Shown here: piece by piece, positions 1 to 21,505 of the stretch
How positions within the stretch are numbered: the first letter of the stretch is position 1
Layout of the letters: the number at the start of each line of letters is the position of its first letter
Assembly: GCA_045640765.1 (NCBI GenBank)
Contig: JAZUFP010000020.1
Span: 1 to 24,118, forward strand
DNA length: 24,118 bases
Source: Acutalibacteraceae bacterium
GTDB lineage: Bacteria > Bacillota > Clostridia > Oscillospirales > Acutalibacteraceae
Direction of reading: 5' to 3'
Made by a program: the position numbers and the translations under genes
Notes under the pieces: generated by a model
Databases searched by the model: none
What the model was told of the DNA's origin: nothing
Seen by the model: only the letters and a program-made list of their open reading frames with translations

Positions 1-1718
1 GAGATCTCTTTTTCCTCAAACGAAACGTTGACGGCAAGTACCGCCAGGTGACCGTTCGAGGAACGGACGCAGGACGTGCAGATCCCGTCACCGGCGGAAC
101 CGGCAAAAACTTTGGAATCCATATCGCCCAAATAGCGGGTCATCAATGTGATCGCGTAATAATCGGGATACGGTTCTTTACAGCGGTGAATATTCGGCAT
201 GGTGCCGCAGCGATGATCGCCGTCCACAAAGGTGTCGAATCCGTCCCAATGGTTATTCGGCCACTGCTGATCGAAGATCGTCCACAGCAGTGAACTGTTG
301 ACACCGGCGTTCATAAAGCCCGCCTGCGCCGACGCAAAAGAAAGACCTTTGCGCGGCAGTTCGTTCGGATCCAGCAGACGTGTGTTATACTCGTCAAACC
401 AGAAGTCCTTATCCGCGGGGACCGGCTTTTTGAAACTTTCGGCGGTATGATACCAGAAATAGTATTCACCCAGCGGATCGTTCTTTCCGCCGAAGCCGTA
501 CTCATAAACCAGCCACGCGGTCGAGCCGACCACCTCAAAATCGCCGTTGTCCAGCAGTTCGCGGTCATCCCCGACCTTTTTCAGCGATGCCAGATCGTAA
601 TAACCGACGGTACCCTCTTCGGGGATGTCGTGATAAATGCCGAAATAACCAAACGTATGATCGCCCGAATGGAAGCGCATTTTATACTGTTTCCATTCGT
701 CCGACATTTCGGTGGCGGGGATATTGACCACGCTGTTGTCGGTCAGATAACTGACCCCGTCTCCGCCGGCGGTAATGGTGCGGATCAAACCTTTTTCGCA
801 CCACGGCACGTGAAACGCGCCGAGGAAAAAGCCGCGCTTGTCATTGACCGGATCGGTAAGACCGGTTGCCTTTGCCCATACCGACGCTTCATATTCGGTA
901 TTCGGTTCCAGGTCCACACGCTGCTGTGCGCGGAAGCCCGGTATCGGGAAACGCAGGCAGTAGTCGCCGGAGAACGCTTCCCATTCGGGTTGTTCGGAAT
1001 AGTCCACGTCCAGATAGCAGTGGGTCGTGAAAACATCCAGTTCATCGTGGAGATTTTCCACGCACCATTCCAGCATTTCGGGACGGTCACTTGCCGGTTG
1101 TCCGGCGTTGGGGCCGACCAGTTTCACCAGAGAGCGCAAGCCGTCTTCCGTCAAATGACGGTGCGCCGCCCGGGCGCACAATCCGTACGGTTCAAATTCG
1201 CTTTCAAACCCGAAAATCCGTTTCAGTTCACGCGTACTGCCGTTCGGTTCGGTAAACAGAAAAATGTACTTGATATTATCAAATCCGCGTTTGACGATGA
1301 TTTCGTTGACGGCTTCGCTGACATAGGCACCGAAGCGATCCGCCGCAACGGCGGGATCGTCGTCGCGGAACGGATATTCATTCGCCAGGAAAATATTATA
1401 CGCCAGCCACCAGCCGAGATTCAGCGCGACTGTGACATTGCGCTTTTTCATTTCTTCCAGCCAGCGATAGACCCCCCGCACGTTCGCGTCTTCCCAATTC
1501 CATTTTCCGTTTTCATAGGGAGGAAATTCAAAATAAGTACGGGCGATCTTCAAACCGGATTTTGTTACGCGCTCCATCTCGATCTCGCATTCTTCGGGCG
1601 TATAGGCGCGTCCGGAATCATCGGGACAAAACGCGAAAGCGTGATACACCGCGTTGACGCCCAGGAAATGTTCCTGGACGCAGCGGGTATTATCTATTTC
1701 TAAATTCACTTTGGTCAA
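1..1718 (-). CDS. Putative cytoplasmic clan GH-A-like glycoside hydrolase with internal CBM4/9-like insertion; 3' end beyond the window; absent from the ORF track
   Basis: Hand translation gives an open frame from TTG at 1718 (GAGGT RBS at 1733-1729) to the window edge, 572 codons: MTKVNLEIDNTRCVQEHFLGVNAVYHAF...LFTEP (Glu codon 1250-1248)...KLVGPN...DVFTTHCY...FWFDEYN (Glu codon 392-390)...LLWTIFDQQWP...VLAVNVSFEEKEI. Motifs are colinear with the 710-aa neighbour. No signal peptide. The + strand ORFs 447..1703 and 48..293 are its in-register antisense shadows. Confidence 0.85.
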   Translation of the reverse strand, partial: MTKVNLEIDNTRCVQEHFLGVNAVYHAFAFCPDDSGRAYTPEECEIEMERVTKSGLKIARTYFEFPPYENGKWNWEDANVRGVYRWLEEMKKRNVTVALNLGWWLAYNIFLANEYPFRDDDPAVAADRFGAYVSEAVNEIIVKRGFDNIKYIFLFTEPNGSTRELKRIFGFESEFEPYGLCARAAHRHLTEDGLRSLVKLVGPNAGQPASDRPEMLEWCVENLHDELDVFTTHCYLDVDYSEQPEWEAFSGDYCLRFPIPGFRAQQRVDLEPNTEYEASVWAKATGLTDPVNDKRGFFLGAFHVPWCEKGLIRTITAGGDGVSYLTDNSVVNIPATEMSDEWKQYKMRFHSGDHTFGYFGIYHDIPEEGTVGYYDLASLKKVGDDRELLDNGDFEVVGSTAWLVYEYGFGGKNDPLGEYYFWYHTAESFKKPVPADKDFWFDEYNTRLLDPNELPRKGLSFASAQAGFMNAGVNSSLLWTIFDQQWPNNHWDGFDTFVDGDHRCGTMPNIHRCKEPYPDYYAITLMTRYLGDMDSKVFAGSAGDGICTSCVRSSNGHLAVLAVNVSFEEKEI

Positions 1719-1741
1719 AATAATCTCAACCTCTATACAAA

Positions 1742-3874
1742 TCAGTTATCCACGTGATATTCCGTCGAATAGATCGCGAAAGAAAGGGCCGGAACAACAT
1801 CACGCAATTCGTTCTTCGTTCCCTTGAAGCAGATGTCGGCGTCGATCATGGTCGCGCTGCTGTCCGCCATAACCTCAAACGGGTTATAAAGGTAACGGTA
1901 CATCTTCACACCGCCGAGACTCTTGGAAAGGGTGATATCCACCGGACGTTCGGTGACGTTGGTATTTACAACGATGATCGAATGGTAGGTCTTGCCCTTT
2001 TTCTGATATTCGACCATGGAAAGGTTGACGCCGTCGGAACTTTCACCGCAGAATGTCTTAGATCCCATCATGCCGCAGTATTTCGTCAACAGCGTAAAGC
2101 CGTAATACGAAATATACGGAACAGACGATTTACACATGGCAGGTGCCATACCGATAACGTGAATACCGGAAACGAATTCGTCACCGGAACCGTCACGGTA
2201 GGGCCAGACCGTATCAAACAGCTGCCAGGTCAGACCCGTTTCAATACCGCTGTTCATCATCGCGACGGTCGCCTGTGCCAACTGTCCCGGATTCATCGGG
2301 TTTTCGGCAACGATATCGTCGTAATGCTGACGGTTTTCGCCGGTATCGGTATTATAGTTGAATTCATCGAACCACATGGCTTTTCCGGTGGGTTTGATCG
2401 TCTCCACGAACCGGTCGAAATACATCTTATACATAAAATAGTTGTCGTCATAGAACGTCGCGTTCTGAGGCGCGCCGATTCCGGGCCAGTTCGGCAGATA
2501 ATAGTGGAAAGAGTAAACGTCGATGACGTCGTCCGCGTGGTCGATCCACCACTGGATATCGTCTTCCGGCTTCATTTCGGGCTGTTTCCCGGTCACCACA
2601 CCTTTTTCATACGACATGTGGATCGTTCCGCCGAACGCAACATCCGGTCCGACAAACCGGACCTTTTTGCGCATACCGTTCGCTTTGGCCGCCTTGTCCG
2701 CGGCTTTGATGATTACAAGCCACATATCCCAGGTGGTATACAAGCGGGCAGTCAACTTCTGCTTTTTCGTCAGGTTGACCTTTGCCCCGGTCTTGATATC
2801 ATAGAAATCCGGGAAGGCATGGATGTATTTGTAATCTTCATCCATTTCCTTGGAATAGCAGGTTTTGGCGTTACAGACGTAATCCTTTTCCCCGATCTTG
2901 GCCATATACATCGGGACGCCTTTCATCACCGGATTTTTGGCGTAAACCTTGTTTTCGACCGAAATATCCGCGCGATAATTCAATTCCTGACGTTTCTGGG
3001 CGCTGTATTCATAATAAAGCGGCTCGGTCAGGTTGACCGTGTACTGAACGTTGGTATATCCGTATTTATCAATGATCCATTTCAGCGATTCGGCATACCA
3101 GTAGGCGTAACCGTTGACAACGTCACTGAACCGGCAACCGAAAAACGGATTGTTTACGCTGATCGAAGTATGTTCATAATACAGATCGCCGGCGCTCCAG
3201 CCCATGTTCAGCGCAACAACGATATTGCGTTTCTTCAACGCATCAAGCCACTGATACAGATACATCATGTTCGGATTTTTCTTGCTGAAATCCCACGAAG
3301 ACGGATCGTTCACATTTCCGCCGACATAGGCGTAGGACGGTTCAAAATAGGAGCGGATCAGCGAAATATCCATTTCGTCAATACGTTTCAGTTCACGTTC
3401 CAGCATTTTCTGGTTATAGGAACGCCCCAGTTTGGTAGCATCCGGAATGAAAATGAATCCCTGATAAACCGAATTGAGTCCCAGCCAGTTGTTGGAAACC
3501 GCCTTGCTGTTATTGATCGAAAGCGAAACCACCTCATCGGGCAAGTAACCCGTTTCGGTAGTATTCTGCGGTTCTTTTTTCGGCTTCTCGTCCGGAAGAT
3601 CTTTATCTTTTTTTATGGGAACTTTTTCGGTAATTTCTTCGGTGACCTCTTTTTCTACCAGTTTCTTGCGCTCGTAAGGTACGGTAACTTCGTTGACCTC
3701 GCCTTTTTTGGTAGTGGTAACGGTCTTTTCGGTATAGCTTTTTTCGGCAACGACAACATTGTTTTTGCCCTGCGAAGCGGTAGTACCGTCATCCGAAGAA
3801 GAACCGGTCGTGCAGGCGATCGCTGAAAAAACGATGAGCGCGGCTAATACCAGTGCGGTTAATCTGCTTTTCAT
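1742..3874 (-). CDS. Lipoprotein, clan GH-A-like (GH39/GH30/GH51-like architecture) glycoside hydrolase, 710 aa
   Basis: Signal peptide with lipobox AIA-C21, then a Thr/Lys/Glu-rich spacer. Barrel motifs NLTEP (Glu284, codon 3025-3023), RFVGPD, DVYSFHYY, MWFDEFN (Glu504, codon 2365-2363). C-terminal beta-sandwich-like tail (HSIIVVNTNVTERPVDITL). ATGA overlap with the upstream gene. Exact family not assignable by eye. Confidence 0.75.
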   Translation of the reverse strand: MKSRLTALVLAALIVFSAIACTTGSSSDDGTTASQGKNNVVVAEKSYTEKTVTTTKKGEVNEVTVPYERKKLVEKEVTEEITEKVPIKKDKDLPDEKPKKEPQNTTETGYLPDEVVSLSINNSKAVSNNWLGLNSVYQGFIFIPDATKLGRSYNQKMLERELKRIDEMDISLIRSYFEPSYAYVGGNVNDPSSWDFSKKNPNMMYLYQWLDALKKRNIVVALNMGWSAGDLYYEHTSISVNNPFFGCRFSDVVNGYAYWYAESLKWIIDKYGYTNVQYTVNLTEPLYYEYSAQKRQELNYRADISVENKVYAKNPVMKGVPMYMAKIGEKDYVCNAKTCYSKEMDEDYKYIHAFPDFYDIKTGAKVNLTKKQKLTARLYTTWDMWLVIIKAADKAAKANGMRKKVRFVGPDVAFGGTIHMSYEKGVVTGKQPEMKPEDDIQWWIDHADDVIDVYSFHYYLPNWPGIGAPQNATFYDDNYFMYKMYFDRFVETIKPTGKAMWFDEFNYNTDTGENRQHYDDIVAENPMNPGQLAQATVAMMNSGIETGLTWQLFDTVWPYRDGSGDEFVSGIHVIGMAPAMCKSSVPYISYYGFTLLTKYCGMMGSKTFCGESSDGVNLSMVEYQKKGKTYHSIIVVNTNVTERPVDITLSKSLGGVKMYRYLYNPFEVMADSSATMIDADICFKGTKNELRDVVPALSFAIYSTEYHVDN

Positions 3875-6800
3875 TCCTCTGCACCCCCCGATTTTTTCTT
3901 TTTACCCAAAAACAGAAGCAGGAAAAATGCCGCCAGACTTAAAACCAAAACGATGACCGCGGCGATACAGATGTAGGCACCGGCAGAAAAATCACCGCCG
4001 GATTCGGTCACGGTCTTGCGGACACGCTTGCCGTATTCGGGCTTATACGTGACTGCGTCTTCCACAACTTCTTCCCATGTGGTCAGACTGGTATCAGTGC
4101 GGTAACAGGTTTCCGGTACCAGTTCCCGGACTGTTTCAGTATTCGTTTTGGTTACGGTTTTATAAGTCGTGGGTGTTTCGGGCGCGGGATCTTCCTCTTC
4201 TTCGATATTTTGCTGATGAATGATATCAAAGCTGAGTGCCGGCAAGACCATCAGTTTGGCCGTCCTTTTCTCAACTACACTCAACGAAGAGATGCCTTGC
4301 GAAGCAAAATAAAGATCGACATCGTCAATGCGGATATTGCCCTTTGTACCGGTGATGAGCAGGAATCCCTCATCGTAAATACCGGAACCGAAAGCAATAT
4401 TGACACGGTGCCACTTGCCGTCACGCCCGAACGGAATATTTCCGTCTTCGGTCAGGAACAGATCCTTAAAGTTCTTTCCGCCCGCGTTACCGTAAACGCC
4501 GACCGTAATATCGCTGTCGGGATCGGCCTTGACCCACAAAGACAGAATATAGTTGTTGTTGGTGACCAGCGGGAATCTGCGGAAATAGGTAGAGCCATCC
4601 AGCGCGTCGCCGCTGATCTGCATCACGTGCTTATTGGCCTTACGACCGCTGTCGCCCGGATCGGAAACGACCTTCATACCGTCGGAAAGCGGAGCCCAGT
4701 TGGCTTTGGTGATCTTGGATTCAAAATCATAGTTATCCAACTGCGAATACAGATCTTCGCAGTACAGACTGTCTTCGTAGTTCGCGACTTCGGTTACCGT
4801 AAAGTTGTCAAACAGCACGTCACAACCGTAATAAAGCGGAATAACAAAGTAGGCAATGTCCGGAACGACCTCTTCGGTAACGATGGAAAGGGTCATCGTC
4901 CGCCACTGATGGTCGTTGATCTTGCTGACAAAGGTCTTCATCGACCAGCTGCCCGCCATACCGTAGTTGGTACCCAGCGCGCAATAATGGTCAAACGTGT
5001 ATTCATCATCCGGGTTGGTATCGTGATTCAGAATCATATACCGGACGTTGATGTTATATTCCGAGTGACTGCGCAGCGCGATACCGTGGATATCGTAATT
5101 GAGGGCTCTGTCCTGACGCGGTTCGTTGCTGTAACCGTACAGGAAACCTTTGGATTCGCCGATCGTCGAAGCAAGTTTCGGATAGAGCTTCTTGATTTCG
5201 GCGTTGGTAACACGGCGGAAGCCGGTCGTTGACGGATAGATCGTCGGATCTTCCTCATCAAACGTCAAAACTCTTTCTTTGACCGGTGTCGGCGAAACGA
5301 CCTCACGCAAAGTGAAATTGTCAAACAGCAATTCCTGACCGCCGTATACACCGACCCTGAAATAGTTCGCCGCGGGGACCATCTTCGTGGTCGAGAAATA
5401 GATCGTTTTGGAGCTCCAACCCTTTTCAACGTTGTTATAGTAGTCATAATGACTTTTTACACTGTTGGTTTCGGGTTCCAGATGTTGTGTGCCGAACGCG
5501 AACGCATATACCGCGCCGGTCGCTTTTTTGGAGCAGTAATCAAACGTAAGGGCATAATTCGTATTGGTTTTCAGTTGAATGTTTTTCAGTTCAACAAAGG
5601 CAACATCGGCACTGACGGCGTCTGAATTTTCGATATACAGATAACCGCCGCTTCCGTTATCCTGGAAGCCCTTTTTGATGATTTCGGACTTGGTCAGACG
5701 GGCACTGTGTTCGGTCATAGCGACGTATTTGGTCGAATCCGCCTTTTCAAAATCGAGCACGCCGATCTCTTCGTTGGTTTCTTCCAGATATTTGGTGACC
5801 GACAGGTCGTCGATATATACTGCCGCGCCTGCGGAAATGTTGAAGATCATCCAGTCATCCGACGCCGATCCGGTGGCGTTTTTGCCGATTTCAAACAAGA
5901 AAGACGCGGTTTTCCACTCGCCTTCAACGCCGTTTCTGACCGTCAGGATCGCCTCGCTTGATCCGGCCAAAACAATGTTCGGATCGGTACCGACCGTAAA
6001 CAACGTGTTGCCGGATGCCGATTCACGCGCCTGATAGTAGGGAAACTCCACTTCATACTTGCAGTTGGTTTCCGGTTTGATTTTACCGTTCACGGCACCT
6101 AACTTACCGGTCTTCGCGGCATTTTTATCCGCGACAGCGCGCAGGTAACCCATGGACAGTTTCGGTTCGGTGACCTTGACCATTTTCAGTTTGGAGGGAG
6201 CGTCCTTGCTGATCGGGACCGAACTGTCGTCCAGTTTCTGAACAACGGTAGACGCGGTAAAAGGTACGTTCGCGACGGTACCGCCGAATTCGTAATCGGA
6301 AATGACGATATCGTCAATATAGACCGACGTTCCCGGTGCTGCCTTGATCGCCAGACCGTCGGCAAGATCGGAAAGCTTTGCGATATAAGACGCTTTTTCC
6401 CAGCGTTCGGCCGTGCGGTTGGAACCGGCTTTGACCGTGCCGGCAAGACCGCAGCTTTCATTGGATCCGTCTTTGACGGCGTAAAGCGAGAATAACTCAT
6501 CACTGTCGGCGGCGGACTTCATATAATAGTTGAAAGAAACACGGTAATCGATATCCGGTTTCAAGTTGTTGAATTCTTCGTCGATCACCTTGACCGTATC
6601 GGATGAAGCATGGACCGCGTAATCAGTCGCAGGAGGAACTTCGCCATAAGCGACTTCCGGACCGGCCTCGATGCTGAAAGAACCTTTCGGCACCGGAGCG
6701 ACCTTTTCATTGTCACCCACCGATTCGTCCCAGCAGACATAAGACATGGATTCGTCTTCAAAGTCGATCTGATAAACAATATTACCTTTCAGATCGGTAA

Positions 6801-8859
6801 CGGTCATGTTATCAATATAGACTTCGGTACCGCACCAGACCTTGACACCCATGGTGTTGTAATAAACGTTATCACTGGAATCCCCGCACACAAACGGTTG
6901 ATTGATACCGTAAGAGCCGCCCTTTACCTGGAACCACTGCCCGTACGGCTGTTGTCCCGTACCACTGCCCATTCCGTAGGTGCGGCGGTCGGTACGGAAG
7001 ACTTCACAGTACTGGCCGTTACCGCTGCCGACACGCATTGTCGGGAAGTTGTTGTGCATTTCACCGCCGTCATAAGCAGCGGTATAACCGTTGTCGAAAT
7101 AGTAGAGATCCGCCGTGAAAAGGTACTTCTGACCGACAACTAATTTTCCGGGCAGATCCGGTGTGTCAAAGCGGATATCCAAAACGTGATCCATTTTGGA
7201 GCGTATCGGGGTATTGATATGCAGTAATCTGTTTTTCGCCAGACCCGCACGCACCGAACGGCGATTCATTTTTTCGCCGACCAGGTTATAGGAAACGTCA
7301 TACGTTCCCGTATTGATCCGTTCGATCTTACAGGTCACGACCGCCTTGTTCGTAGCGGCATCAATGATCTGAATATTGTCGAAATACGCGATCAGTCCCT
7401 GATAGGCGCGGATGCACAGATCGAACCCGGCCGGCTGGAATTCCGGTGTGGTAAAGGTCTGCCATTCGTCCGTACCCAGATCGCCGATATTCCGGGTGCT
7501 TATTATCTTTGAACCGAATTCGATTTCAAAGTTTTTGGTGTTTTTATCTTTTCCGATCAGCGTTTTGGCGTTTCTGCCGATAAAGGCATCCATGCTGATC
7601 TTATATTTTTTATTGGCATCCAGTTTTTCGGAAAGGTTGAAATCATTGATATAGGTATAGGACTTTGCCGATTTGTTATTGATGACCGAAGCCACCCAGT
7701 CCTTTACAACGTAAACGTCCGGACCGTTTTCAATGGCATAAATACTGCGTTCCGTATAGGAAGCGACCGTGATGGCATAATCGTTGCTGAAATCAGCCGC
7801 CAGCACAACGCCACCGGTCACGGCATCGACAAATTCCACGTTATCGATATACAGCGAAACCCCGGCGCCGACTTCGATCGTCCAATAGGTCGTCTGACGG
7901 TTCTTGGCGGTGAATTCGGTTTCGTAGGTGTACCACGTTTCAAATTTCGGCTGATTTGCCGTCAGATCAAAGGAAGTGTTCAGACTGCCCTTGTCACTGG
8001 TAGCGTTATTCGCGATACGAAGTTTTACTTCTTCGGTACTGACCCCTTTTCCGTTGTTTTCCAGATAGTAATAATCGAAACGGAGTTTATAATTCTTGTT
8101 CACCGTCAGTTTTTTGGAAAGTGCCGTTGATTCATCGTCACCCTGCTTGAAACTGAATGCGAAATAATGACTGTTTTTTCCGCCGTTGATATTATCCGGG
8201 CATTTAATGCGGAACAGACGGTTGTCCTTACGGACCTGCGCCGTTTCATTTTTCAATACCCAGTCAAAATACAGGTAATTGCCCGCCGCGGTCTCAGCGT
8301 CGATTTTATCGGTCTTACCGTTGCCGTCGATCGTTTCCAGATTGTCGAAAAGCACTTCGACGCCGGCCACCAGGGAAAAATTCAGCGTAACATTCTTTGT
8401 TTTCGGAATGACGTCGGTTTCATAATGATACCATTTTTCGACTTCGGTATACACCGTCATCTTCATCTGCTGGGAAGAAACGGTCGTCGTTCCGTCCGCG
8501 ATTTCGGTCGTGAAGATCAGGTTGCCTTCCGACGGCATTTCGGAAATCAAAAAGTCAAAACCGACCGTATTCATTTCCCCGGCGATGACCGGGCAGTTCA
8601 AAACGATCTGCTGCGTACTTTCGGAAGTATTCTGACCGAACAGATAACCGTCCTGTTGCGGCAAACCGTCAAGACTTAACGCGGAATCCGAAGAAAACCC
8701 GAAATCGTCAGGATCTTCAAAATCCAGTTCCTGACGGGTATAGGTGTCGGCGGAAACCGGCGAGGAAAGCAAACTGAACGGAAAATAAGCCGCCAGAATA
8801 GCCACAATACACAGCACTGTCAACCCGATTTTCGGAAAACGCTGTATTCTTGTTTTCAT
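3871..8859 (-). CDS. Large membrane-anchored surface protein with about nine tandem CBM4/9-like (galactose-binding-like) beta-sandwich modules, 1662 aa
   Basis: Start moved from 8904 to ATG 8859 (AAGGAG RBS 8870-8865). SPase I-type signal peptide (SPVSA|DT). Nine repeats of Y-x-(L/I/V)-x-F ... W ... (Y/L)(I/F)D(N/D)(hydrophobic) about 500 nt apart. Pro/Thr/Glu spacer, one C-terminal TM helix (AYICIAAVIVLVLSLAAFFLLLFLG) and a KKKK stop-transfer. Confidence 0.8.
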   Translation of the reverse strand: MKTRIQRFPKIGLTVLCIVAILAAYFPFSLLSSPVSADTYTRQELDFEDPDDFGFSSDSALSLDGLPQQDGYLFGQNTSESTQQIVLNCPVIAGEMNTVGFDFLISEMPSEGNLIFTTEIADGTTTVSSQQMKMTVYTEVEKWYHYETDVIPKTKNVTLNFSLVAGVEVLFDNLETIDGNGKTDKIDAETAAGNYLYFDWVLKNETAQVRKDNRLFRIKCPDNINGGKNSHYFAFSFKQGDDESTALSKKLTVNKNYKLRFDYYYLENNGKGVSTEEVKLRIANNATSDKGSLNTSFDLTANQPKFETWYTYETEFTAKNRQTTYWTIEVGAGVSLYIDNVEFVDAVTGGVVLAADFSNDYAITVASYTERSIYAIENGPDVYVVKDWVASVINNKSAKSYTYINDFNLSEKLDANKKYKISMDAFIGRNAKTLIGKDKNTKNFEIEFGSKIISTRNIGDLGTDEWQTFTTPEFQPAGFDLCIRAYQGLIAYFDNIQIIDAATNKAVVTCKIERINTGTYDVSYNLVGEKMNRRSVRAGLAKNRLLHINTPIRSKMDHVLDIRFDTPDLPGKLVVGQKYLFTADLYYFDNGYTAAYDGGEMHNNFPTMRVGSGNGQYCEVFRTDRRTYGMGSGTGQQPYGQWFQVKGGSYGINQPFVCGDSSDNVYYNTMGVKVWCGTEVYIDNMTVTDLKGNIVYQIDFEDESMSYVCWDESVGDNEKVAPVPKGSFSIEAGPEVAYGEVPPATDYAVHASSDTVKVIDEEFNNLKPDIDYRVSFNYYMKSAADSDELFSLYAVKDGSNESCGLAGTVKAGSNRTAERWEKASYIAKLSDLADGLAIKAAPGTSVYIDDIVISDYEFGGTVANVPFTASTVVQKLDDSSVPISKDAPSKLKMVKVTEPKLSMGYLRAVADKNAAKTGKLGAVNGKIKPETNCKYEVEFPYYQARESASGNTLFTVGTDPNIVLAGSSEAILTVRNGVEGEWKTASFLFEIGKNATGSASDDWMIFNISAGAAVYIDDLSVTKYLEETNEEIGVLDFEKADSTKYVAMTEHSARLTKSEIIKKGFQDNGSGGYLYIENSDAVSADVAFVELKNIQLKTNTNYALTFDYCSKKATGAVYAFAFGTQHLEPETNSVKSHYDYYNNVEKGWSSKTIYFSTTKMVPAANYFRVGVYGGQELLFDNFTLREVVSPTPVKERVLTFDEEDPTIYPSTTGFRRVTNAEIKKLYPKLASTIGESKGFLYGYSNEPRQDRALNYDIHGIALRSHSEYNINVRYMILNHDTNPDDEYTFDHYCALGTNYGMAGSWSMKTFVSKINDHQWRTMTLSIVTEEVVPDIAYFVIPLYYGCDVLFDNFTVTEVANYEDSLYCEDLYSQLDNYDFESKITKANWAPLSDGMKVVSDPGDSGRKANKHVMQISGDALDGSTYFRRFPLVTNNNYILSLWVKADPDSDITVGVYGNAGGKNFKDLFLTEDGNIPFGRDGKWHRVNIAFGSGIYDEGFLLITGTKGNIRIDDVDLYFASQGISSLSVVEKRTAKLMVLPALSFDIIHQQNIEEEEDPAPETPTTYKTVTKTNTETVRELVPETCYRTDTSLTTWEEVVEDAVTYKPEYGKRVRKTVTESGGDFSAGAYICIAAVIVLVLSLAAFFLLLFLGKKKKSGGAEE

Positions 8860-8873
8860 AATTACTCCTTTAT

Positions 8874-8898
8874 TTCCCGCCGTCAGCGACGGCGGGAA
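8874..8898 (-). other. Intercistronic GC-rich stem-loop after the SBP gene (probable mRNA stabilising/processing element)
   Basis: Perfect 11-bp inverted repeat TTCCCGCCGTC-agc-GACGGCGGGAA. On the operon strand it is followed by ATAAAGGAG (the next RBS), not by a U-tract. Confidence 0.65.
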
Positions 8899-11479: not shown

Positions 11480-11491
11480 CGTATCGCCCCC

Positions 11492-12409: not shown

Positions 12410-12423
12410 TCCTTTCCGTAGAT

Positions 12424-14643: not shown

Positions 14644-16784
14644 TGATAAAGCGCCTCCTTTACAATGGAACCGATAAACGAACTCAGTTCACGCGTAAGA
14701 ATAAAGATCATGAAAATAATGAACACGATCAGCAGAATGCCGAGCACCGAAACGACCGTTGTCCACAGGAAACGGAAGAAATCGTATTCGTGGACCGCCA
14801 TGATACCGACGCACAGAACGACGGCGGTGAGAATGTGACAGCAGACCATCAGAATGGTCATGATCGCCGCTTCTTCCGGCACCAGGATGTTGGTCAGGAT
14901 CAGTTTCAGCACGCAGCCGATGATTTCCGGGATCAGCGCGTAGCAGGTCACCATGAAAATTTCTTTCAGATAACCCTTGCCCTGTGCCAGAATACACACG
15001 CCCCAGTTGACGACCGTCCAGACAACGACCAGTCCGATGGTGCGAACCAGCGTCAGCAGGGAGTTATAATCGGCAGGATCAAAAATGCTGAACGAAAAAC
15101 CGGAATAGATCTCCGAGGCAACCATGGCCACGTAATATAGGATCATGAGCAGGAACGCCACACCCAGCGAGCCGGCGCCTTTATATTTCAGGCGGTAGAA
15201 TGAATCAAACGGATGGATCATGGTATTGAGGGCGAAACGAACCGGATGATCCGGATTCTTTTCCTTTTCCCCGCGCAGTTTGATCCAGATGAAGATCCCG
15301 ACGGCAAGAACCACGACCAGAACGATGATCCACCAGACGTTGTCGGCAAAGAATTCCGAGCGTTTCTGTTGGAACGCGACCGCGTAGTCATTCTGATCCA
15401 GACCGGTTTCGGCATAGTCCAACGCCGCGGTGTTATCCCCTTCAAACAAAGCCGCCTGCGCCAGGCCGATGTAGGCAAGCTGATTGTTTTTGTCGACCGA
15501 CAGAATCTGTTTCCACAGCGGTTTGGCTTCGGGATAATTACCGTCCAGCGTCAGTTTCTGCGCTTTCAAATACATTTTTCCGTAATCGGTAATACGGAAA
15601 GACGTGATACTGCAATCTTCGGCATCGGTCACGTACAGCATATCGCCGTATACCACGATGGAGGAGGCGCGTTCAAACGTTCCCTTTTGTTCGCAGATGA
15701 AATCGCGTCCGCCGCCGCCGAAAACGCCGATGTTATTGCACTGGCTGTCGTAAATAAAGATATGACCGAACTGTGCGTCAACGGCATACACAAAATCGTT
15801 TTTATCGACACAGAGTTTTTTGAAATCGGTCAGGTACGGCATCAGCACTTCGGTCTTGAAATCGCCCGCATCGGTAAAATCAAGCGATTCCGAACCTTTG
15901 CCGCTGCTGTTTTTATAAATATTGCTGCCGGCGGGATTCAGCCGACGGATATGACCGGTACCGGAAGAATAAATATTTTCGGTTTTGCCGGTCAGCGTAT
16001 AGATAAAGTCGCTTTGGTCGATGTCCATACTGATGAACTGGTACGGCAGTTTCTGAACACTTGCCGCACGTTTGGCTTCGGTCTGGGTCATGCGGTCCCA
16101 CAGCTTTGCCAGAAAATCCAACACGGTCGCCTGAACATAGTTGGCACCGTAGAAGCCGAGGAAATTGCCGTCTTCATCATAGACGACCGCGCCGTAATAC
16201 GATCCGTCACTCAATACGAAAATGTATCCGCGTGAGTCCATGACCAGTTTGGTCGGCGCAAAATTGAAATCATCCGGAACGACGTCGCTTTCCGGAAGCG
16301 TGATCTGTTTCGTGTATTTTCCGTTTTTGTCAAAAACCAGCACACGTCCGTTATTGGTATCGCAGACGTAGACCCGATCTTCGCGGTCAAGATAAATGCC
16401 GCGTGCGCCGGAGAAATCCAGTTCTTCACCTTTCACGGTCGGTGAAGAAATGATTTTGATCAGTTTCAGCTGCGGGGTCAGGACCACTACACGGGCGTTA
16501 TCCGCATCAAGAATATAAACGTTTCCTTTACTGTCGGTATCCAGATCGGCGGGTTCACTGAATTCTTCGATGCCGAGGTCAAAACCGTAAACCTTATCTT
16601 CGACCGTATAGAGTTCGCGGATCGGCGCGGCTTCCCGCTTCGTTCCCTCCGCGCTGGTCCAGTACATATAGGTATCGTAAGGTTCGGATTCATATTCTTC
16701 TGCGGAAGCAACCGGCGAGATCATCAGTCCGCACAGGACCAGAACCAGCAATAACGCAGCGGTATATTTCAGGATCTTTTTCAT
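14640..16784 (-). CDS. Secreted NHL-repeat beta-propeller + TPR-like + TM + Yip1-like multi-pass membrane fusion protein, 714 aa
   Basis: Signal peptide (PVASA|EE). NHL-like repeats (FSEPADLDTDSKGNVYILDADNARVVVL; FSGARGIYLDREDRVYVCDTNNGRVLVF; FAPTKLVMDSRGYIFV). TPR-like helices (AKPLWKQILSVDKNNQLAYIGLAQA), a TM (WWIIVLVVVLAVGIFIWI), then MIHPFDSFY and about five more TMs. Confidence 0.8.
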   Translation of the reverse strand: MKKILKYTAALLLVLVLCGLMISPVASAEEYESEPYDTYMYWTSAEGTKREAAPIRELYTVEDKVYGFDLGIEEFSEPADLDTDSKGNVYILDADNARVVVLTPQLKLIKIISSPTVKGEELDFSGARGIYLDREDRVYVCDTNNGRVLVFDKNGKYTKQITLPESDVVPDDFNFAPTKLVMDSRGYIFVLSDGSYYGAVVYDEDGNFLGFYGANYVQATVLDFLAKLWDRMTQTEAKRAASVQKLPYQFISMDIDQSDFIYTLTGKTENIYSSGTGHIRRLNPAGSNIYKNSSGKGSESLDFTDAGDFKTEVLMPYLTDFKKLCVDKNDFVYAVDAQFGHIFIYDSQCNNIGVFGGGGRDFICEQKGTFERASSIVVYGDMLYVTDAEDCSITSFRITDYGKMYLKAQKLTLDGNYPEAKPLWKQILSVDKNNQLAYIGLAQAALFEGDNTAALDYAETGLDQNDYAVAFQQKRSEFFADNVWWIIVLVVVLAVGIFIWIKLRGEKEKNPDHPVRFALNTMIHPFDSFYRLKYKGAGSLGVAFLLMILYYVAMVASEIYSGFSFSIFDPADYNSLLTLVRTIGLVVVWTVVNWGVCILAQGKGYLKEIFMVTCYALIPEIIGCVLKLILTNILVPEEAAIMTILMVCCHILTAVVLCVGIMAVHEYDFFRFLWTTVVSVLGILLIVFIIFMIFILTRELSSFIGSIVKEALYQ

Positions 16785-16820
16785 TACGGTTTCCTTCCTT
16801 TCGTCAGAATTGAATCATGC

Positions 16821-17684
16821 TTATTCCTTGATACCGGCGCTACCCATGGTTTCCATCACGCTTCCCTGCGTGATCATATATACGGTGACAGGCGGGATCA
16901 GCAAAATAACGGTTGCCGCCATGGCGCTGCCCGAACGGGCGATACCGCCGGCGGAAATGGTTGAAAGAACGGTCGGCAGCATTTTCAGTTCTTCGCTGAA
17001 AATCGTACCGCCGGGCTGCATGGACCACAGATCGCGGAACGCGAACAGTGCCAGCGTCAGCCATGCCGGGCGAATGATCGGCAAAGCGATCTGCCGGTAG
17101 ATGCGGAAAAATCCGGCGCCGTCGATCCGGCCGGCTTCCAACAGCGCGTCCGGCACACTGCTGTCGATGAACTGTTTCATTAAGAAGACACCCATTGCGG
17201 ACGGCAGATACGGCAGGATATAGACTAAATAAGTATCGATGATGTGCAGTTTCGAGAAGATCACGTACTGCGGGATCGCCAGCGTATAAGCGTTATACAG
17301 CAGCGCGAACTGTACGGTGGCGAAAATCACGGCACAACCTTTGAATTTCAGCTTTGACAGGACAAACGCCGCCATGGAAGCGATCAGAATATGCAAGATC
17401 GTGGTCGCCACGCTGACAAAGATACTGTTGAAAACGTACCGTGAAAGCGGGACCTGCAAACTGGAAAGCAGTTTCGGCAGTGCCGCGTAGTTTTCCAACG
17501 TCGGCCGTGTCACAAAGAAACGCGGCGGGTAGATCATGATTTCTTCCAGCGGTTTCAGTGAGGTACAGACCGTGTAAATGATCGGCAGTACCGAAAACAG
17601 ACCGAACAGCGTCAGGAAGAAGAAATAAAAGAAATTGCCGACCCGTGAACGGGTATATCTTTTATACTGTGCACGATTTTTCAT
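16821..17684 (-). CDS. Carbohydrate ABC transporter permease (MalG-like), pair 1
   Basis: TSLKPLEEI...PPRFF; MAAFVLSK; EAA loop SVPDALLEAGRIDGAG; ATGA overlap with the upstream gene; GGGAGG RBS. Confidence 0.92.
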   Translation of the reverse strand: MKNRAQYKRYTRSRVGNFFYFFFLTLFGLFSVLPIIYTVCTSLKPLEEIMIYPPRFFVTRPTLENYAALPKLLSSLQVPLSRYVFNSIFVSVATTILHILIASMAAFVLSKLKFKGCAVIFATVQFALLYNAYTLAIPQYVIFSKLHIIDTYLVYILPYLPSAMGVFLMKQFIDSSVPDALLEAGRIDGAGFFRIYRQIALPIIRPAWLTLALFAFRDLWSMQPGGTIFSEELKMLPTVLSTISAGGIARSGSAMAATVILLIPPVTVYMITQGSVMETMGSAGIKE

Positions 17685-18595
17685 TTGCGCCCTCCCTGAT
17701 TACCGAAGGAGTCCAGTATCTTGCCGACGAGCACGCGCGTGATCGCCATCATGGCAAACAGGAAGACCGACAGCGCCGCGGCATAGCCCATTTCATACCG
17801 GCTGGTGCCGACGTCCATCAGCATTGTGACCAACGTATCGGTAGAATAGTTCACGCTTGGGAAACCGGTCAGTGTCGTAACGATCGAACCGATCGAGAAG
17901 CAGGACTGGATCTGCATGACCGCGCCGAACAGCAGGATGGATTTCATACTGGGCAGCGTAATATACCACAGTTCCACCCAACGGTTCCTGACACCGTCGA
18001 TACATCCCGCTTCGTACAGTTCCGGGTTGACGTTCTGCAAACCGGAAACATTGGCGAGGAACGAAACGCCCATGCTCATCCACAACTGGACGATCATCAC
18101 GATCGGCATGGCGTATTCGGGGGATTTGAACCATTGGATCGGTTCCGAAACCAAACCCATGGTCAGCAGGGCATTGTTGATATAACCGTAACTGTCGCCG
18201 CTGAACAGCACCTGCCAGATCAGGTAGACCTGACCGGAAAGCGCCGGCGCGTAAAACAGGAAGGAAAGCAGCGTGCGCATACCGCGGTTCAGTTCGTTGA
18301 TCATCCACGCCAGCATAAAAGCAAGGATATAACTGATCGGGCCGGTCACGATCGCCAGGAGCAGCGTGTTCCGCAATACTTTCGGGAACATATCGTCACG
18401 GGAAAACATTTTTACATAATTCCCGATACCGTTAAACTTGGGGGCGGAGATCATGTCGTAGGACGTGAAACTCAACACCACGGAAGAAATGATCGGCAGG
18501 ATCGTAAAAACGAAAAACAGGATCAGAAACGGAGCCAGCATGATCAAGCCGGTTCTGATTTCGCTGTTTTTCTTAATGCCGAGTTTTGTTTTCAT
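17681..18595 (-). CDS. Carbohydrate ABC transporter permease (MalF-like), pair 1
   Basis: MLAPFLILFFVF; LSFTSYDM; FLFYAPAL; EAA loop NVNPELYEAGCIDGV; GGAG RBS. Confidence 0.92.
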   Translation of the reverse strand: MKTKLGIKKNSEIRTGLIMLAPFLILFFVFTILPIISSVVLSFTSYDMISAPKFNGIGNYVKMFSRDDMFPKVLRNTLLLAIVTGPISYILAFMLAWMINELNRGMRTLLSFLFYAPALSGQVYLIWQVLFSGDSYGYINNALLTMGLVSEPIQWFKSPEYAMPIVMIVQLWMSMGVSFLANVSGLQNVNPELYEAGCIDGVRNRWVELWYITLPSMKSILLFGAVMQIQSCFSIGSIVTTLTGFPSVNYSTDTLVTMLMDVGTSRYEMGYAAALSVFLFAMMAITRVLVGKILDSFGNQGGRK

Positions 18596-18628
18596 AACTC
18601 CATTATCCTTTCAACGAATCGGAAATTC

Positions 18629-21505
18629 TTACTTCAATCCATATTGAGAACGCTTTTCGGCGATCTCGTTATCGGCGACCTTATCCCATTCCAACAGCAT
18701 GGAACGGACGCTCTTGTTATTGTTGACAACGTTCCAGAATGCCTGGTCAACAACGCGCGGGATGTAATAGCCGCCCGGCACTTCGGGCATTTCGCGGACA
18801 ACTTTCCACTGGTTCAGCAAAATTTCAGCGTCGTTATCATCCCAGGACAGACGCTGCATCGCACCGACCGTAGCCGGCGTATTACGCCCGGTCACGCCCA
18901 AAATAGATTCGATGTTCTGCGAGAAGCGGTACTCGATCTCATCGCTGGTCCACCATTTGATAAACTCCCACGCGTCATTGATCTCCTGCATGTTGCCGTT
19001 GTCGATGATCGCGCAGGCAGAGCCCGCGCCGGCCTGGCAGTTGTTGATCGTACCGTCTTCCTGCAAGAAGCCGGGGATCGGGGCAATTCCCCACAAGCCC
19101 TTGATTTCGGAAGCCGCGCCGCTTAACAGCGTATAGATCGGATACGACTGGATCGCCATCGGCATCAGCCCGATGCGGAAGCGGTTATAAAAATCATAGG
19201 TTTTCTGGAAACTGTATTTGTTGTAAAAATCAGTCCACATGGTGAATGCCTTGACCGCTTTGAGCGAGGTCAGTTCAATGGCGGAATAATCTTTGTTATA
19301 CAGATTGCCGCCGTCCTGCATCAGCAAAGTCGGGAAAATATTCAGCGCGCCCAGTCCCATGTTGACCTGGCTCATATCGGTGATCTGTGTATAAGGCAGA
19401 CCGACCTGCATATTGTTGCGCATGATCACCGACGAAACGTGAATGAAATCATCCCACGTTTTCGGCACCGACATACCGAGTTCTTTCAGAATATCGGAAC
19501 GGTAGAACAGAACCGTGAAAGTCTGACTGTCGGGAAGACCGTAGGCACCCTTTTTGCCGTTTGCGTCGGTAAAATCGTACGGGACGGTCGCGGTCGGCAT
19601 AAACCGTTTGCAGACCTCATCGTAATCGTCAAAGTTTTTCAGATCGTACAGCGCGCCGCGCATAGCCAGATTGACCGGTTCGGTACGGGACAACCGCAGG
19701 TAGCAGTTCGGGCCGTTGCCCGAAAGCAGACCCTGAATGACCGACGCGTTGGTCAGTTTGATATCGACCGCGATGCCGGTCTTGGGGGTAAAGTCGCTTT
19801 GGACCAGGAAGTTCAGCACCTGTGCCTGATCACGGCCCCAGTTGATCCACAGCGAAATGGAATGTTTCGTGTCGGCACCGCCGGAAATGTTATTGTAATC
19901 CCCCGCCAGCGACGCACAGAACCGCAGGAAACCGAAACGAAGATCGGTAAAGAATCCGGCGTTGTAACCCGCAATGTCCTTACCGGGCGCTTTCAGGCAG
20001 AACGCGTCGATATCCAACGGCATATTGGTCATTTCATAAAGCCACGCGCTGATACTGGAATAGTTGTCGTAAAAACTGCTTTTATAATTCTGCGCCTGAT
20101 ACTTGTAATTCAGCATACGGTCGATGACCGCCACCATACTTTTGATGATCGACGTCGCGGAACTGCTGCCGTTGCCCGAAATGCGGACGGCTTCCTTTTC
20201 AATGGCGGTCAAAGCGGTTTTCAGATTTTTCAAACGGTTTTCAAAATCCGGGATCTGACCGAACAGGTTATAGTCACGGTTGGCATCGGGCGACTCGCCG
20301 GTGATCATAACGATCTGCCGGTAAAGGGTACCGAGTTCCCTGATCTGCGGTTGAAGTTCACGCGCCAGCGACGAAAACTCGCCCAGCGTGACCGAAAGTG
20401 AAAAATCATGTTCCCCTTTGGTCAGATACACAACGTACGGCTTTCCCTTTTCGTCGGTAAAGCCGTAATGCTTCCAGGCGTTGCAATAGGCGAATTTCAA
20501 GCTCTTGGCTTCCTCAAACGGCAGTTGACCGTCAATTTTCAGGACACGGTAGGAATTGCCGTTCATCAGATAACTTTGCTGGAAATGGAAATCCAGTTCA
20601 TACAAACCGTCCGCCGGGACGTTGATTTTCCACGTGATCGTGTCGCCGACGCCGCTCCAGTTGCTGCCGCCGATGTAGTTGATCTTGTTCCGGAACGGAT
20701 CGTTCGGCACAACGTCCGCCGAGGTGGTATCCGACAAAGCGATCAGCGAATTCTGTGATTTCAGAACGGCGCTTTCGCCTTCCACATTGATCTGTTCGCC
20801 GTCGTAGGCGGTGTACCCCTTGCTCTGCCAGTCCGCCAGCGCTTCCGCAAAGGTCGGCGCGGTCTCTTCGGCACAAAGCGTCATGCCGGCAATGGCGATC
20901 TTGGCAGCGTGACCGACAAGCGTGACCGTATGTTTGCCGGGTTTCAGCGCGAACAGGTACGGATCGGCGATCAGCCCTTCCGGATCGCTGAAACGCTGTT
21001 CGTTCCAATCCAGCGCCTCGATCTGTTCCGGGGCGAATTCATTATCGGCGCCATCCTTCCGGATGGTACCGTCATCTTTCCAGATGCGCGGCAGTTTCAG
21101 TCCGGTCAGACCGTCGAAAGGTTCTTTCCCGTCGATCAGCACGTCCATCGCGAACGACTGATTTCCGTTTTCCAGCGCACGGTAATTCAGTTTGATGTTA
21201 TAAAGTCCGCCTTTTTGAAGATCGAACTGCCAGGCCAGCGCACCGTTGCCGTTCAGCCAGCGGATCGCGGATCTTCCGTCGAATTTGCCGGTTTTGATCT
21301 GCGCGCCGCGTTCCGCGGAAACGTTGTCCAAAGAAAGCGGGATATCCTGCACCGTTCCGTTCAGATCGGAATACGCGGAAAGATACGCGGCATATTCGTC
21401 TGTGAAAACAATATCGTCCGCGGTCTGCGCGGATACCGGCATATTGCAGAATACCGCCGGGATCATCATGCATATTCCCAGTAAAAACGCAACGGTTTTT
21501 TTCAT
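18629..21505 (-). CDS. Giant extracellular solute-binding protein (N-terminal CBM-like modules, helical linker, C-terminal SBP_bac_1-like domain), 958 aa
   Basis: Start moved from 21751 to ATG 21505 (AAGGAG RBS 21517-21512). SPase I-type signal (MPVSA|QT). Two beta-sandwich-like segments (WQFDLQKGGLYNIKLNY; WKINVPADGLYELDFHF), a helical stretch, then an SBP domain from about 19870 (ISLWINWGRDQ, LFYRSDILKELG, PKTWDDF, AWEFIKWW, EVPGGYY). Confidence 0.85.
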   Translation of the reverse strand: MKKTVAFLLGICMMIPAVFCNMPVSAQTADDIVFTDEYAAYLSAYSDLNGTVQDIPLSLDNVSAERGAQIKTGKFDGRSAIRWLNGNGALAWQFDLQKGGLYNIKLNYRALENGNQSFAMDVLIDGKEPFDGLTGLKLPRIWKDDGTIRKDGADNEFAPEQIEALDWNEQRFSDPEGLIADPYLFALKPGKHTVTLVGHAAKIAIAGMTLCAEETAPTFAEALADWQSKGYTAYDGEQINVEGESAVLKSQNSLIALSDTTSADVVPNDPFRNKINYIGGSNWSGVGDTITWKINVPADGLYELDFHFQQSYLMNGNSYRVLKIDGQLPFEEAKSLKFAYCNAWKHYGFTDEKGKPYVVYLTKGEHDFSLSVTLGEFSSLARELQPQIRELGTLYRQIVMITGESPDANRDYNLFGQIPDFENRLKNLKTALTAIEKEAVRISGNGSSSATSIIKSMVAVIDRMLNYKYQAQNYKSSFYDNYSSISAWLYEMTNMPLDIDAFCLKAPGKDIAGYNAGFFTDLRFGFLRFCASLAGDYNNISGGADTKHSISLWINWGRDQAQVLNFLVQSDFTPKTGIAVDIKLTNASVIQGLLSGNGPNCYLRLSRTEPVNLAMRGALYDLKNFDDYDEVCKRFMPTATVPYDFTDANGKKGAYGLPDSQTFTVLFYRSDILKELGMSVPKTWDDFIHVSSVIMRNNMQVGLPYTQITDMSQVNMGLGALNIFPTLLMQDGGNLYNKDYSAIELTSLKAVKAFTMWTDFYNKYSFQKTYDFYNRFRIGLMPMAIQSYPIYTLLSGAASEIKGLWGIAPIPGFLQEDGTINNCQAGAGSACAIIDNGNMQEINDAWEFIKWWTSDEIEYRFSQNIESILGVTGRNTPATVGAMQRLSWDDNDAEILLNQWKVVREMPEVPGGYYIPRVVDQAFWNVVNNNKSVRSMLLEWDKVADNEIAEKRSQYGLK

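Follow-up and report, generated by a model that had tools for sequence, protein, structure and literature searches.

The 24,118-nucleotide stretch of Acutalibacteraceae DNA analysed here (the window) is probably a LacI-controlled, Gram-positive polysaccharide utilisation locus (PUL) with a conserved twin CUT1 importer cassette at its core. Judged from its sequence, that core is the xloEFG-Athe_0177-Athe_0178-axoFGE block published for Caldicellulosiruptor. The papers describing the block (PMC8579813, PMC12285236) make no mention of its being a widely conserved cassette. Its seven core genes encode a giant solute-binding protein (SBP), permeases A1 and A2, an NHL-TPR-Yip1 protein, a DUF5696 protein, and permeases B1 and B2. 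The cassette is a generic platform that the genus has copied repeatedly, with a different enzyme set attached to each copy, and its status as a functional module is well supported.

The operon is real and contains at least 11 genes. The open reading frames, Pfam matches and a check of the junctions bear out the first-pass annotation in its claim of 11 consecutive minus-strand genes under one consensus promoter (all operon coordinates below are on the minus strand). The promoter (21723..21751) joins TTGACA to TATAAT across 17 nt with a TG extension, matching the sigma-70 consensus at 12 of 12 positions, and is followed by a 217-nt leader (21722-21506); an Rfam search of the window, leader included, found no family. 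The three ATGA couplings that had been proposed lie exactly at 17681-17684, 14640-14643 and 3871-3874, the remaining junctions measure 12-61 nt, and a purine-rich ribosome-binding site (RBS) precedes every start. A scan of the intergenic gaps for terminator-like hairpins found none in any gap, as the same annotation had held. The window does not contain the whole operon: the last gene, a 572-aa frame, is cut by the contig end, and the related loci L049 and L058 carry extra genes downstream of the corresponding operon end. Upstream and divergent lies the gene for a 335-aa LacI-family regulator (21954..22961, plus strand; Pfam LacI HTH 5e-15, Peripla_BP_1 6.5e-19) with a visible ATG and RBS. This protein is likely the repressor of the 11-gene operon; an inverted-repeat scan of the divergent promoter region for its operator gave nothing convincing, and a search of sequencing runs returned no RNA run containing the locus.

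The first importer unit, A, opens with SBP1 (18629..21505), a giant solute-binding protein of 958 aa in which Pfam recognises SBP_bac_8 only at residues 693-945 and whose N-terminus is a hydrophobic helix without a lipobox. In its AF2 model (pLDDT 88.5, pTM 0.85), two beta-sandwiches (55-211 and 239-373) and a helical bundle (377-493) stand before a CUT1 SBP fold (497-954), and matches in the PDB, all to oligosaccharide SBPs, are restricted to the latter part (TMq 0.33, TMt 0.72-0.82). This architecture is kept in 39 homologues, and among the 34 family members in which an N-terminal hydrophobic segment can be recognised, 30 have no lipobox. Permease A1 is a MalF-type TMD of 304 aa (17681..18595) with a BPD_transp_1 match and an EAA motif; its own-family HMM scores are 300-450 bits, and those with the other three permease families only 50-120 bits. 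ATGA-coupled to it is permease A2, a MalG-type TMD of 287 aa with an EAA motif (16821..17684), for which BPD_transp_1 stays below the cut-off in the genome search (21.2 bits) and the family HMM scores strongly. The second unit, B, consists of permease B1 (305 aa, 11492..12409), with a weak BPD_transp_1 match, its own family HMM and the variant EAA motif YE..eGa..We.FW.iTfP; permease B2 (322 aa, 10511..11479; BPD_transp_1 1.7e-13), with the motif elEeAA.iDGag; and SBP2 (8911..10449), an ordinary-size lipoprotein of ~512 aa from the ATG at 10449 with an SBP_bac_1 match (2.7e-18), the lipobox FAGC and a Ser/Thr-rich linker. The permeases form four distinct families, and the ATPase-coupling EAA motif is kept in all of them (37-42 homologues each). 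A recent duplication of one importer was considered as the origin of the two pairs and rejected, because the A and B permeases resemble each other no more than either resembles ordinary CUT1 permeases.

CUT1 importers such as MalEFGK2 use a shared ATPase of the MsmX/MsmK type. The operon likewise contains no ATPase gene, and a single MsmX/MalK-type ATPase, encoded by an OB_MalK-bearing gene on a separate contig (C358), is the only one found in this metagenome-assembled genome (MAG; Bacillota, 1.95 Mb, 94% complete). Proteins of the SBP_bac_1/8 fold, MalF/MalG-type pairs of EAA-bearing permeases and a MalK/MsmX-type ATPase encoded elsewhere in the genome together place the system in CUT1 (TC 3.A.1.1). 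We infer two separate import routes for oligosaccharides, each a type-I ABC translocator: A (giant SBP with permeases A1/A2) and B (permeases B1/B2 with SBP2). The parts and coupling motifs are all present, and transport itself is presumed from family knowledge. Both would draw their energy from the ATPase on the other contig, the presumed partner of the cassette permeases. The cassette nevertheless differs from an ordinary CUT1 importer in having two permease pairs, two additional conserved envelope proteins and an SBP of ~950 aa that lacks a lipid anchor and carries a conserved extension of 500 residues at its N-terminus.

The closest described counterpart is the xylan degradation locus (XDL) of Caldicellulosiruptor (Anaerocellum) bescii, xloEFG-Athe_0177(NHL)-Athe_0178('GH129')-axoFGE, in which xylan induces the whole set Athe_0174-0181, eight genes, and msmK as well (Rodionov et al. 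2021, PMC8579813). A LacI-family regulator, XynR, binds the operator of the Caldicellulosiruptor cassette with a Kd of 161 nM (PMC12285236). One locus in our collection, L017, matches all eight cassette HMMs, and we assign it to Caldicellulosiruptor because the DNA upstream of it matches exactly the C. owensensis sequence that precedes xloE in the supplement of PMC8579813. Its identity to the window proteins is 38% for SBP1, 50% and 48% for permeases A1 and A2, 32% for NHL/Yip1, 23% for DUF5696, and 38% and 37% for permeases B1 and B2. The window has the XDL-type twin-importer order of eight genes, the final SBP included, together with a LacI-family regulator, no ATPase in the operon, and secreted and cytoplasmic glycosidases after the cassette. 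The two loci differ in their attached genes: Caldicellulosiruptor has xylan as substrate and GH10, GH43 and other enzymes, whereas the window has an unclassified clan GH-A-like pair and a nine-module carbohydrate-binding module (CBM)-like protein. The authors of that study divide the block into two predicted CUT1 importers, XloEFG and AxoFGE, with Athe_0178 a putative GH129 and Athe_0177 unnamed (PMC8579813). The first-pass annotation had raised the prospect that the block might turn out to be already characterised as two independent ordinary importers; it has indeed been published, transcriptomically characterised and read that way (PMC8579813), but the reading was made from predicted importers.

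Extended to the window, that reading would mean two ordinary CUT1 importers, co-operonic by chance, with DUF5696 an active exo-glycosidase from a distant GH129 subfamily and NHL/Yip1 an unrelated envelope protein. It agrees with the names already in print (XloEFG, AxoFGE and a putative GH129, PMC8579813), with the complete EAA motifs of both permease pairs, and with the presence of a separate SBP for each pair in the window and in Caldicellulosiruptor. The DUF5696 protein itself, a 739-aa lipoprotein (12424..14643; lipobox FAAC; Pfam DUF5696 5e-110, 369 bits) ATGA-coupled to the NHL/Yip1 gene, speaks on both sides. A PDB search with its single sequence was uninformative (best E 0.14), but the family profile matches ZgGH129 (PDB 5opq, a GH129-like 3,6-anhydro-D-galactosidase) at E 1.9e-15 and NagBb (5wzn) at E 8.6e-9, with homology spanning the N-terminal sandwich, the first barrel half and the C-terminal sandwich. 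The AF2 model (pLDDT 86.5) has the three-domain GH129 fold with a central (beta/alpha)8 barrel, and Foldseek pairs it with 5opq (E 9e-31, TM 0.61/0.68) and 5wzn (E 1e-23), TM lying at 0.6-0.7. Unlike the GH129 enzymes, DUF5696 always lies within a transporter cassette and has no acidic residue that is invariant among 37 homologues. The catalytic half of the barrel does not align to GH129 by sequence. Of the best candidate residues, the D545 column holds 30 D, 6 N and 1 H, and E640 is present in 33 of 37. Neither is at a strand end in the model, D545 falling ~10 residues past strand 532-535 and E640 ending helix 631-640, and the window protein departs from the consensus at D212S, N580F and N626T. 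The variability of these candidate acids counts against an active exo-glycosidase, but several of them (D545, E640) are moderately conserved, and the protein may yet be an enzyme.

A broader difficulty for independent importers is the conservation of the block. The first-pass annotation had pointed to its recurrence and proposed a gene-neighbourhood survey, and the survey found the components co-conserved in order. The canonical order holds in 30 of 40 DUF5696-centred loci, across ~24 Bacillota genera; NHL/Yip1 lies immediately before DUF5696 in 38 of the 40, permeases B1 and B2 immediately after it in 37, and 4-nt overlaps between DUF5696 and permease B1 are frequent in other loci. Pairwise distances among all eight components correlate at 0.42-0.75 over 38 cassettes, which fits a shared evolutionary history, although common descent by itself could produce such values. 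Roughly every twelfth Bacillota genome in the sample carries the cassette; a single-protein search for related loci had returned only one, near-identical MAG locus. Six DUF5696-centred copies are present in this MAG, each in a cassette wherever the contig allows, and 13 in one close relative. In this gut genome, 26 of the 40 BPD_transp_1 matches, about two thirds of its ABC-importer permeases as matched, lie in cassettes, set against one MsmX-type ATPase. The copies differ in their enzymes (GH29-like; GH78-like; GH16+GH20+GH38-like; beta-helix+GH36; GH-A-like), and since each is tied to different glycan-degrading genes, the cassette acts in effect as a single platform for uptake in a Gram-positive PUL. 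Linkage, order and both accessory genes would not be expected to persist over ~24 genera and 6-13 intragenomic duplications if the importers were together by chance, nor could one glycosidase specificity suit loci for xylan and for GH16, GH20, GH29, GH36 and GH78 substrates.

The distribution of the second SBP points the same way. Only about half of related cassettes have one, and it is absent (within 20 kb) from ~13 complete ones, roughly a third of the complete set, in which a single giant SBP accompanies four permeases. Many copies depart from a one-to-one pairing of SBP and translocator, and our own scheme, in its simple form, does not explain them either. Taking this evidence together, we regard two independent importers joined by chance as quite unlikely.

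The conserved PUL cassette that we favour leaves the role of its two accessory proteins as the least certain step. The NHL/Yip1 protein (714 aa, 14640..16784) has an ectodomain made of an NHL beta-propeller (Pfam NHL 3e-13) and TPRs (TPR_19), a TM anchor at 483-501 and a five-TM Yip1 domain (6e-12), the last scoring 46.1 bits for PF04893 against a cut-off of 28.6 over residues 520-690. Its NHL and Yip1 parts are fused in 20 canonical loci and are two genes in 10. Both beta-propellers and TPRs typically bind proteins. A Yip1-family protein genetically coupled to an ABC transporter also occurs in Bacillus subtilis, where YknW is the membrane partner of an ABC transporter (YknWXYZ); YknXYZ, however, is a MacAB-like exporter that is not known to have a propeller/TPR ectodomain or to act in sugar uptake. 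Literature searches on DUF5696 (PF18952), and on Yip1 combined with NHL, permeases, ABC, SBP or GH, found nothing relevant. NHL/TPR-Yip1 and DUF5696, the latter with its GH129 fold, are constant companions of translocator B. Most likely they hold or trim oligosaccharides and organise their delivery at the membrane, and are not ordinary substrate-specific enzymes.

A stronger version, along the lines of the first-pass annotation, would make the giant SBP, both permease pairs, NHL/TPR-Yip1 and DUF5696 one obligate envelope machine, functionally analogous to the SusC/D utilisome, in which the propeller/TPR protein tethers the un-lipidated SBP and a non-catalytic receptor of GH129 fold feeds translocator B. 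The fixed order, the ATGA coupling of NHL/Yip1 to DUF5696 and the overlaps of DUF5696 with permease B1 elsewhere fit this scheme, as do the protein-binding type of the TPR and propeller domains (known from their families), the missing lipobox in most of the giant SBP family, the ~13 complete cassettes with the giant SBP alone and the want of an invariant catalytic pair in DUF5696. Three loci, however, are half cassettes in which NHL/Yip1, DUF5696, permeases B1/B2 and an SBP occur without the A unit, so the A and B importers are separable, and an uncleaved N-terminal signal anchor would tether the giant SBP with no partner. A complex prediction for permeases A1 and A2 with NHL/Yip1 residues 470-714 (34-row alignments) scored 0.01, which is no evidence on binding in either direction. 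We consider an obligate super-complex rather unlikely. Equally doubtful in our view is the far-reaching proposal of a new type of ABC importer to which NHL/TPR-Yip1 and DUF5696 both belong as obligate subunits. In it, a glycosidase fold devoid of catalysis would act as substrate receptor for a B translocator lacking an SBP, the propeller/TPR protein would tether the un-lipidated giant SBP, and many gut Clostridia would rely on this Gram-positive counterpart of SusC/D as their main platform for sugar uptake.

The SusC/D utilisome of Bacteroidota combines an outer-membrane TonB-dependent transporter with a SusD-like lid. The window shares with it a single regulated locus that would link binding and cleavage of a glycan at the surface to its import and its hydrolysis inside the cell, present in many copies with different enzymes. 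It differs in having no outer membrane and in ATP-driven import through ABC translocators. A Pfam search of all 11 products found no TonB-dependent transporter or SusD-like domain, and the likeness is one of analogy only because none of the defining parts is present. Nearer in kind are the Gram-positive PULs of Roseburia and Eubacterium, reportedly described by Sheridan and colleagues in 2016 as having a single ordinary SBP and two permeases. Like the window, which unites a LacI protein, ABC importers and GH-like proteins (the last recognised by profiles and Glu residues), they bring a regulator together with glycoside hydrolases and an ABC importer at a single locus; they are not known to carry the NHL/Yip1 and DUF5696 partners. 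Understanding the cassette would show by what route complex carbohydrates are taken up in many Firmicutes that degrade fibre and host glycans, and the question is directly testable, since C. bescii is genetically tractable and carries the same cassette in its xylan locus, with known induction conditions and regulator.

The genes that follow the cassette suggest how glycan might be captured and cut. The block of SBP2, a big CBM-like protein and two GH-A-like proteins is kept in the relatives L049 and L058. The big protein (1662 aa, 3871..8859) has a signal peptide, nine beta-sandwich-like modules, each terminating in [VL][YLF][IF]D[DN], and a C-terminal TM anchor followed by KKKK. A Pfam search of the window protein and a PDB search with its single sequence returned no match, but the orthologue at the same position in L049 matches CBM_4_9 at 7.9e-18, the Atlas lead is also CBM_4_9, and L058 has the protein in the same position. 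Together with the pair of beta-sandwiches in the giant SBP, this anchored, CBM-like protein may hold the glycan at the surface.

The 710-aa (1742..3874) and 572-aa (3..1718) proteins form a small Pfam-less family of clan GH-A type and are putative glycosidases. A word-based search with the former gave only two proteins and an exhaustive one 278 cluster representatives among 1.84 billion proteins; a PDB search with the single sequence was uninformative (E 0.02), and the family profile matches GH51 (3e-6) and GH30 (6.5e-6), with GH5 and GH79 also matched. Invariant in 35 members are E284 (T-E-P), H457-x-Y459, D503-E504 and W550, which by motif would provide both proteins with the acid/base and nucleophile Glu of a retaining clan GH-A glycosidase; this assignment draws on motifs and profile matches. 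The 710-aa protein is not cytoplasmic, since it carries the lipobox AIAC and is a surface lipoprotein; a signal peptide is missing only in its 572-aa paralogue, which also has no TM segment and the full-length orthologues of which in L049 and L058 have 632-633 aa. The lipoprotein would then cut the glycan extracellularly, and the signal-less paralogue would complete hydrolysis in the cytoplasm. As to the substrate, the leads are mutually discordant: weak GH5-mannanase matches, a GH36-like gene just behind the GH-A pair of L058, and RhaM downstream in L049.

The window is the entire contig C20 of a 1.95-Mb MAG with a completeness of 94%. Between 21505 and the left window edge, 11 ORFs follow one another on the minus strand, and Pfam gives their order as a 958-aa SBP, two permeases, an NHL+TPR+Yip1 protein, a DUF5696 protein (369 bits), two further permeases, an ordinary SBP and three Pfam-less proteins. 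Because the final gene is interrupted at the contig end, the operon has at least 11 genes. The promoter at 21751-21723 on the minus strand matches the consensus at 12/12 positions and carries a TG extension, ATGA overlaps join three gene pairs (17681-17684, 14640-14643 and 3871-3874), the other intergenic gaps measure 12-61 nt, and a purine-rich RBS is found at every operon start. In a hairpin scan none of the operon's gaps held a terminator-like hairpin, the weak ones detected all falling elsewhere. The first-pass annotation's description of 11 consecutive genes under one promoter, with three ATGA junctions and terminator-free gaps, is thus borne out by ORFs, Pfam, junctions, promoter and hairpin scan. 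For the 217-nt leader between promoter and first start codon (21506-21722), searches yielded neither an Rfam family nor a clear palindrome that could serve as LacI operator. A LacI-family regulator gene (21954-22961) diverges from the operon and converges with an APH-type kinase gene (23312-24118). Directly 3' of the LacI gene, at 22961-22995, lies a hairpin with a perfect 16-bp stem and A and T runs on either side, which is likely to be a bidirectional terminator between these two genes.

We think it fairly probable that this is a LacI-controlled Gram-positive polysaccharide utilisation locus (gpPUL) with a twin CUT1 importer cassette and two conserved accessory surface proteins as its uptake core. 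The basis for this reading is the parts, their order, conservation and coupling motifs, and co-induction in Caldicellulosiruptor. In the mechanism we infer, which takes in transport, the substrate and what NHL/Yip1 and DUF5696 do, glycan would be captured at the surface, cleaved outside the cell, imported via two translocators with a shared ATPase supplying power, and hydrolysed in the cytoplasm.

The cassette is real and widely conserved, a variant of the known CUT1/gpPUL theme in which two fixed components are unexplained. When the phylum was sampled evenly, the DUF5696 family turned up in 34 of 401 genomes and 18 of 270 genera. HMMs for the eight components, built from paralogues of the window's genome, were applied to the ORFs of 40 DUF5696-centred 20-kb loci from ~24 genera; the canonical order was found in 30 of them, with NHL-TPR and Yip1 joined in one gene in 20 loci and encoded by two genes in 10, although 13 of the 40 loci are paralogues of one genome and the counts are thus non-independent. 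The block is therefore co-conserved in order, which bears out the recurrence described in the first-pass annotation. Elsewhere the A unit (giant SBP and permA1/A2) lies behind the B pair (permB1/B2; three loci), the B pair lies in front (one) or A1 is displaced (one); three loci are half cassettes (NHL/Yip1-DUF5696-B1-B2-SBP), one is truncated at a contig end, and one is divergent. The invariant core looks to be the B unit together with its accessory pair (NHL/Yip1 and DUF5696). Pairwise distances correlate among all eight components (r 0.42-0.75, 38 complete cassettes), which fits block inheritance and duplication and is no proof of contact. The half cassettes (L010, L011 and L014) are without giant SBP and A permeases, and their genomes hold 4-7 giant SBPs elsewhere.

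Six DUF5696 genes are present in the window's genome, and tblastn with ORF classification places each copy, where short contigs permit, inside the same set of giant SBP, permA1, permA2, NHL-TPR(-)Yip1, DUF5696, permB1 and permB2. The cassette contigs are C20, C168, C329, C352, C313 (perhaps with C350) and C339+C228, with an orphan B pair on C138; of the 40 BPD_transp_1 matches in the genome, 26 fall on cassette contigs, and only one MsmX/MalK-type ATPase gene was found in the genome. The other cassettes are accompanied by GH29-like, GH78-like, GH16+GH20+GH38-like and beta-helix+GH36 genes, and because the enzyme genes differ we regard the cassette as a generic platform. Across the genus, a genome has between 0 and 14 DUF5696 matches. 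All 13 loci fetched from one 2.3-Mb genome (G014; L034-L046) are complete cassettes, whereas other members of the genus have none or one, and the expansion is therefore strongly lineage-specific. At ~11 kb each, these cassettes take up ~6% of that genome. On the window genome's own contig C313 (L056, 30-2075), NHL-TPR and Yip1 are separate genes rather than fused as in the window, so both forms occur within one genome. On C339 (L053, 1-5908), a dockerin + beta-helix protein and a 1033-aa Pfam-less protein lie upstream of the closest paralogous cassette.

The four permease families are anciently distinct, a member reaching 250-450 bits with the HMM of its own family and 50-120 bits with those of the other three. 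Since all four retain the EAA coupling motif, both pairs look like working translocators. In the 958-aa giant SBP the Pfam SBP domain is confined to the final 260 residues; its high-confidence model (pLDDT 88.5, pTM 0.85) predicts two beta-sandwich modules and a helical bundle before a standard oligosaccharide-SBP fold, and only the last ~420 residues matched solved structures. The N-terminal extension is kept across the family, and of the 34 members in which a hydrophobic segment can be recognised at the N-terminus, 30 have no lipobox. Only about half of the loci have an ordinary second SBP at an edge of the cassette, ~13 complete cassettes lack one inside 20 kb by family HMM, and the gene following permB2 is an SBP by Pfam in 1 of 10 loci checked.

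The NHL/Yip1 protein combines a signal peptide and a propeller/TPR ectodomain with a TM anchor and a Yip1 domain of five TM segments, and the window's DUF5696 protein (12424-14643) is a lipoprotein. A DUF5696 profile of 37 sequences matches the GH129-like 3,6-anhydro-D-galactosidase ZgGH129 (5opq) at 1.9e-15 and NagBb at 8.6e-9, in matches limited to the N- and C-terminal sandwiches and the first half of the barrel; the structural model (pLDDT 86.5) finds 5opq (E 9e-31) and the NagBb entry 5wzn (1e-23), followed by GH101, GH36, GH31 and GH97. No acidic residue is invariant among the 37 sequences, the best candidate catalytic acids being D545 (30 D, 6 N, 1 H) and E640 (33/37). The window's copy deviates at highly conserved polar positions (D212S in a P-D-G-S-G motif, N580F and N626T) and may be a further degenerated member. 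Its closest paralogues retain most of these positions. The obligate super-complex proposed in the first-pass annotation would be compatible with the non-invariant "catalytic" positions of the DUF5696 family, with an un-lipidated giant SBP and with SBP-poor cassettes, but we consider it unlikely.

The chief practical gain is a tie to a tractable model organism, Caldicellulosiruptor bescii. The Caldicellulosiruptor locus L017 (GC 35%) has a tetrapyrrole-methylase gene in front of it, the arrangement also seen in C. bescii. Upstream of its giant SBP it carries a sequence that agrees exactly with the DNA shown upstream of C. owensensis xloE in the PMC8579813 supplement, and it matches all eight cassette HMMs; we therefore equate the cassette with the transporter block of the published xylan degradation locus (XDL). 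All eight genes of that block are induced on xylan and Avicel, with msmK co-induced (Rodionov et al. 2021, PMC8579813), the LacI-family regulator XynR binds the XDL operator with a Kd of 161 nM (2025, PMC12285236), and the orthologues in C. saccharolyticus respond to biomass rich in xylan (PMC5658599). These three papers contain no transport test, no study of the two accessory proteins and no mention of the cassette's broad conservation, and a literature search by name found no paper mentioning DUF5696 or PF18952. Rodionov and colleagues read the block as "two CUT1-family ABC transporters", in agreement with two ordinary importers that are merely co-located, yet such a reading does not fit the fixed linkage across genera and paralogues, and we consider it quite improbable.

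To the twin-importer cassette, the window adds a strongly expanded example whose GH-A-like enzyme pair is unclassified. In the 1662-aa protein, nine modules, each closing with a [VL][YLF][IF]D[DN] motif, lie between a signal peptide and a TM anchor at the C-terminus; its orthologue in the related locus L049 matches CBM_4_9 at 7.9e-18, and the window's copy is Pfam-less. The 710-aa lipoprotein and its signal-less 572-aa paralogue are members of one small family, represented by 278 clusters in a set of 1.84 billion proteins, for which a Pfam search found no model. Its profile matches GH51 (3e-6), GH30, GH5 and GH79, and the invariant E284 (as T-E-P), H457, Y459, D503-E504 and W550 together amount to a clan GH-A signature. 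Dockerin or CBM modules are attached in some of the family's proteins. The block of SBP2, big CBM-like protein and two GH-A-like proteins recurs in L049 (~60% identity) and in a second relative, L058. Past the GH-A-like pair, the L049 operon goes on (10669-17248) with genes for a 92-aa dockerin-only protein, a 1303-aa Pfam-less protein, a Big_2 protein, a radical-SAM enzyme and the L-rhamnose mutarotase RhaM, which hints at a rhamnose-containing substrate; in L058 the pair is followed by a GH36-like protein.
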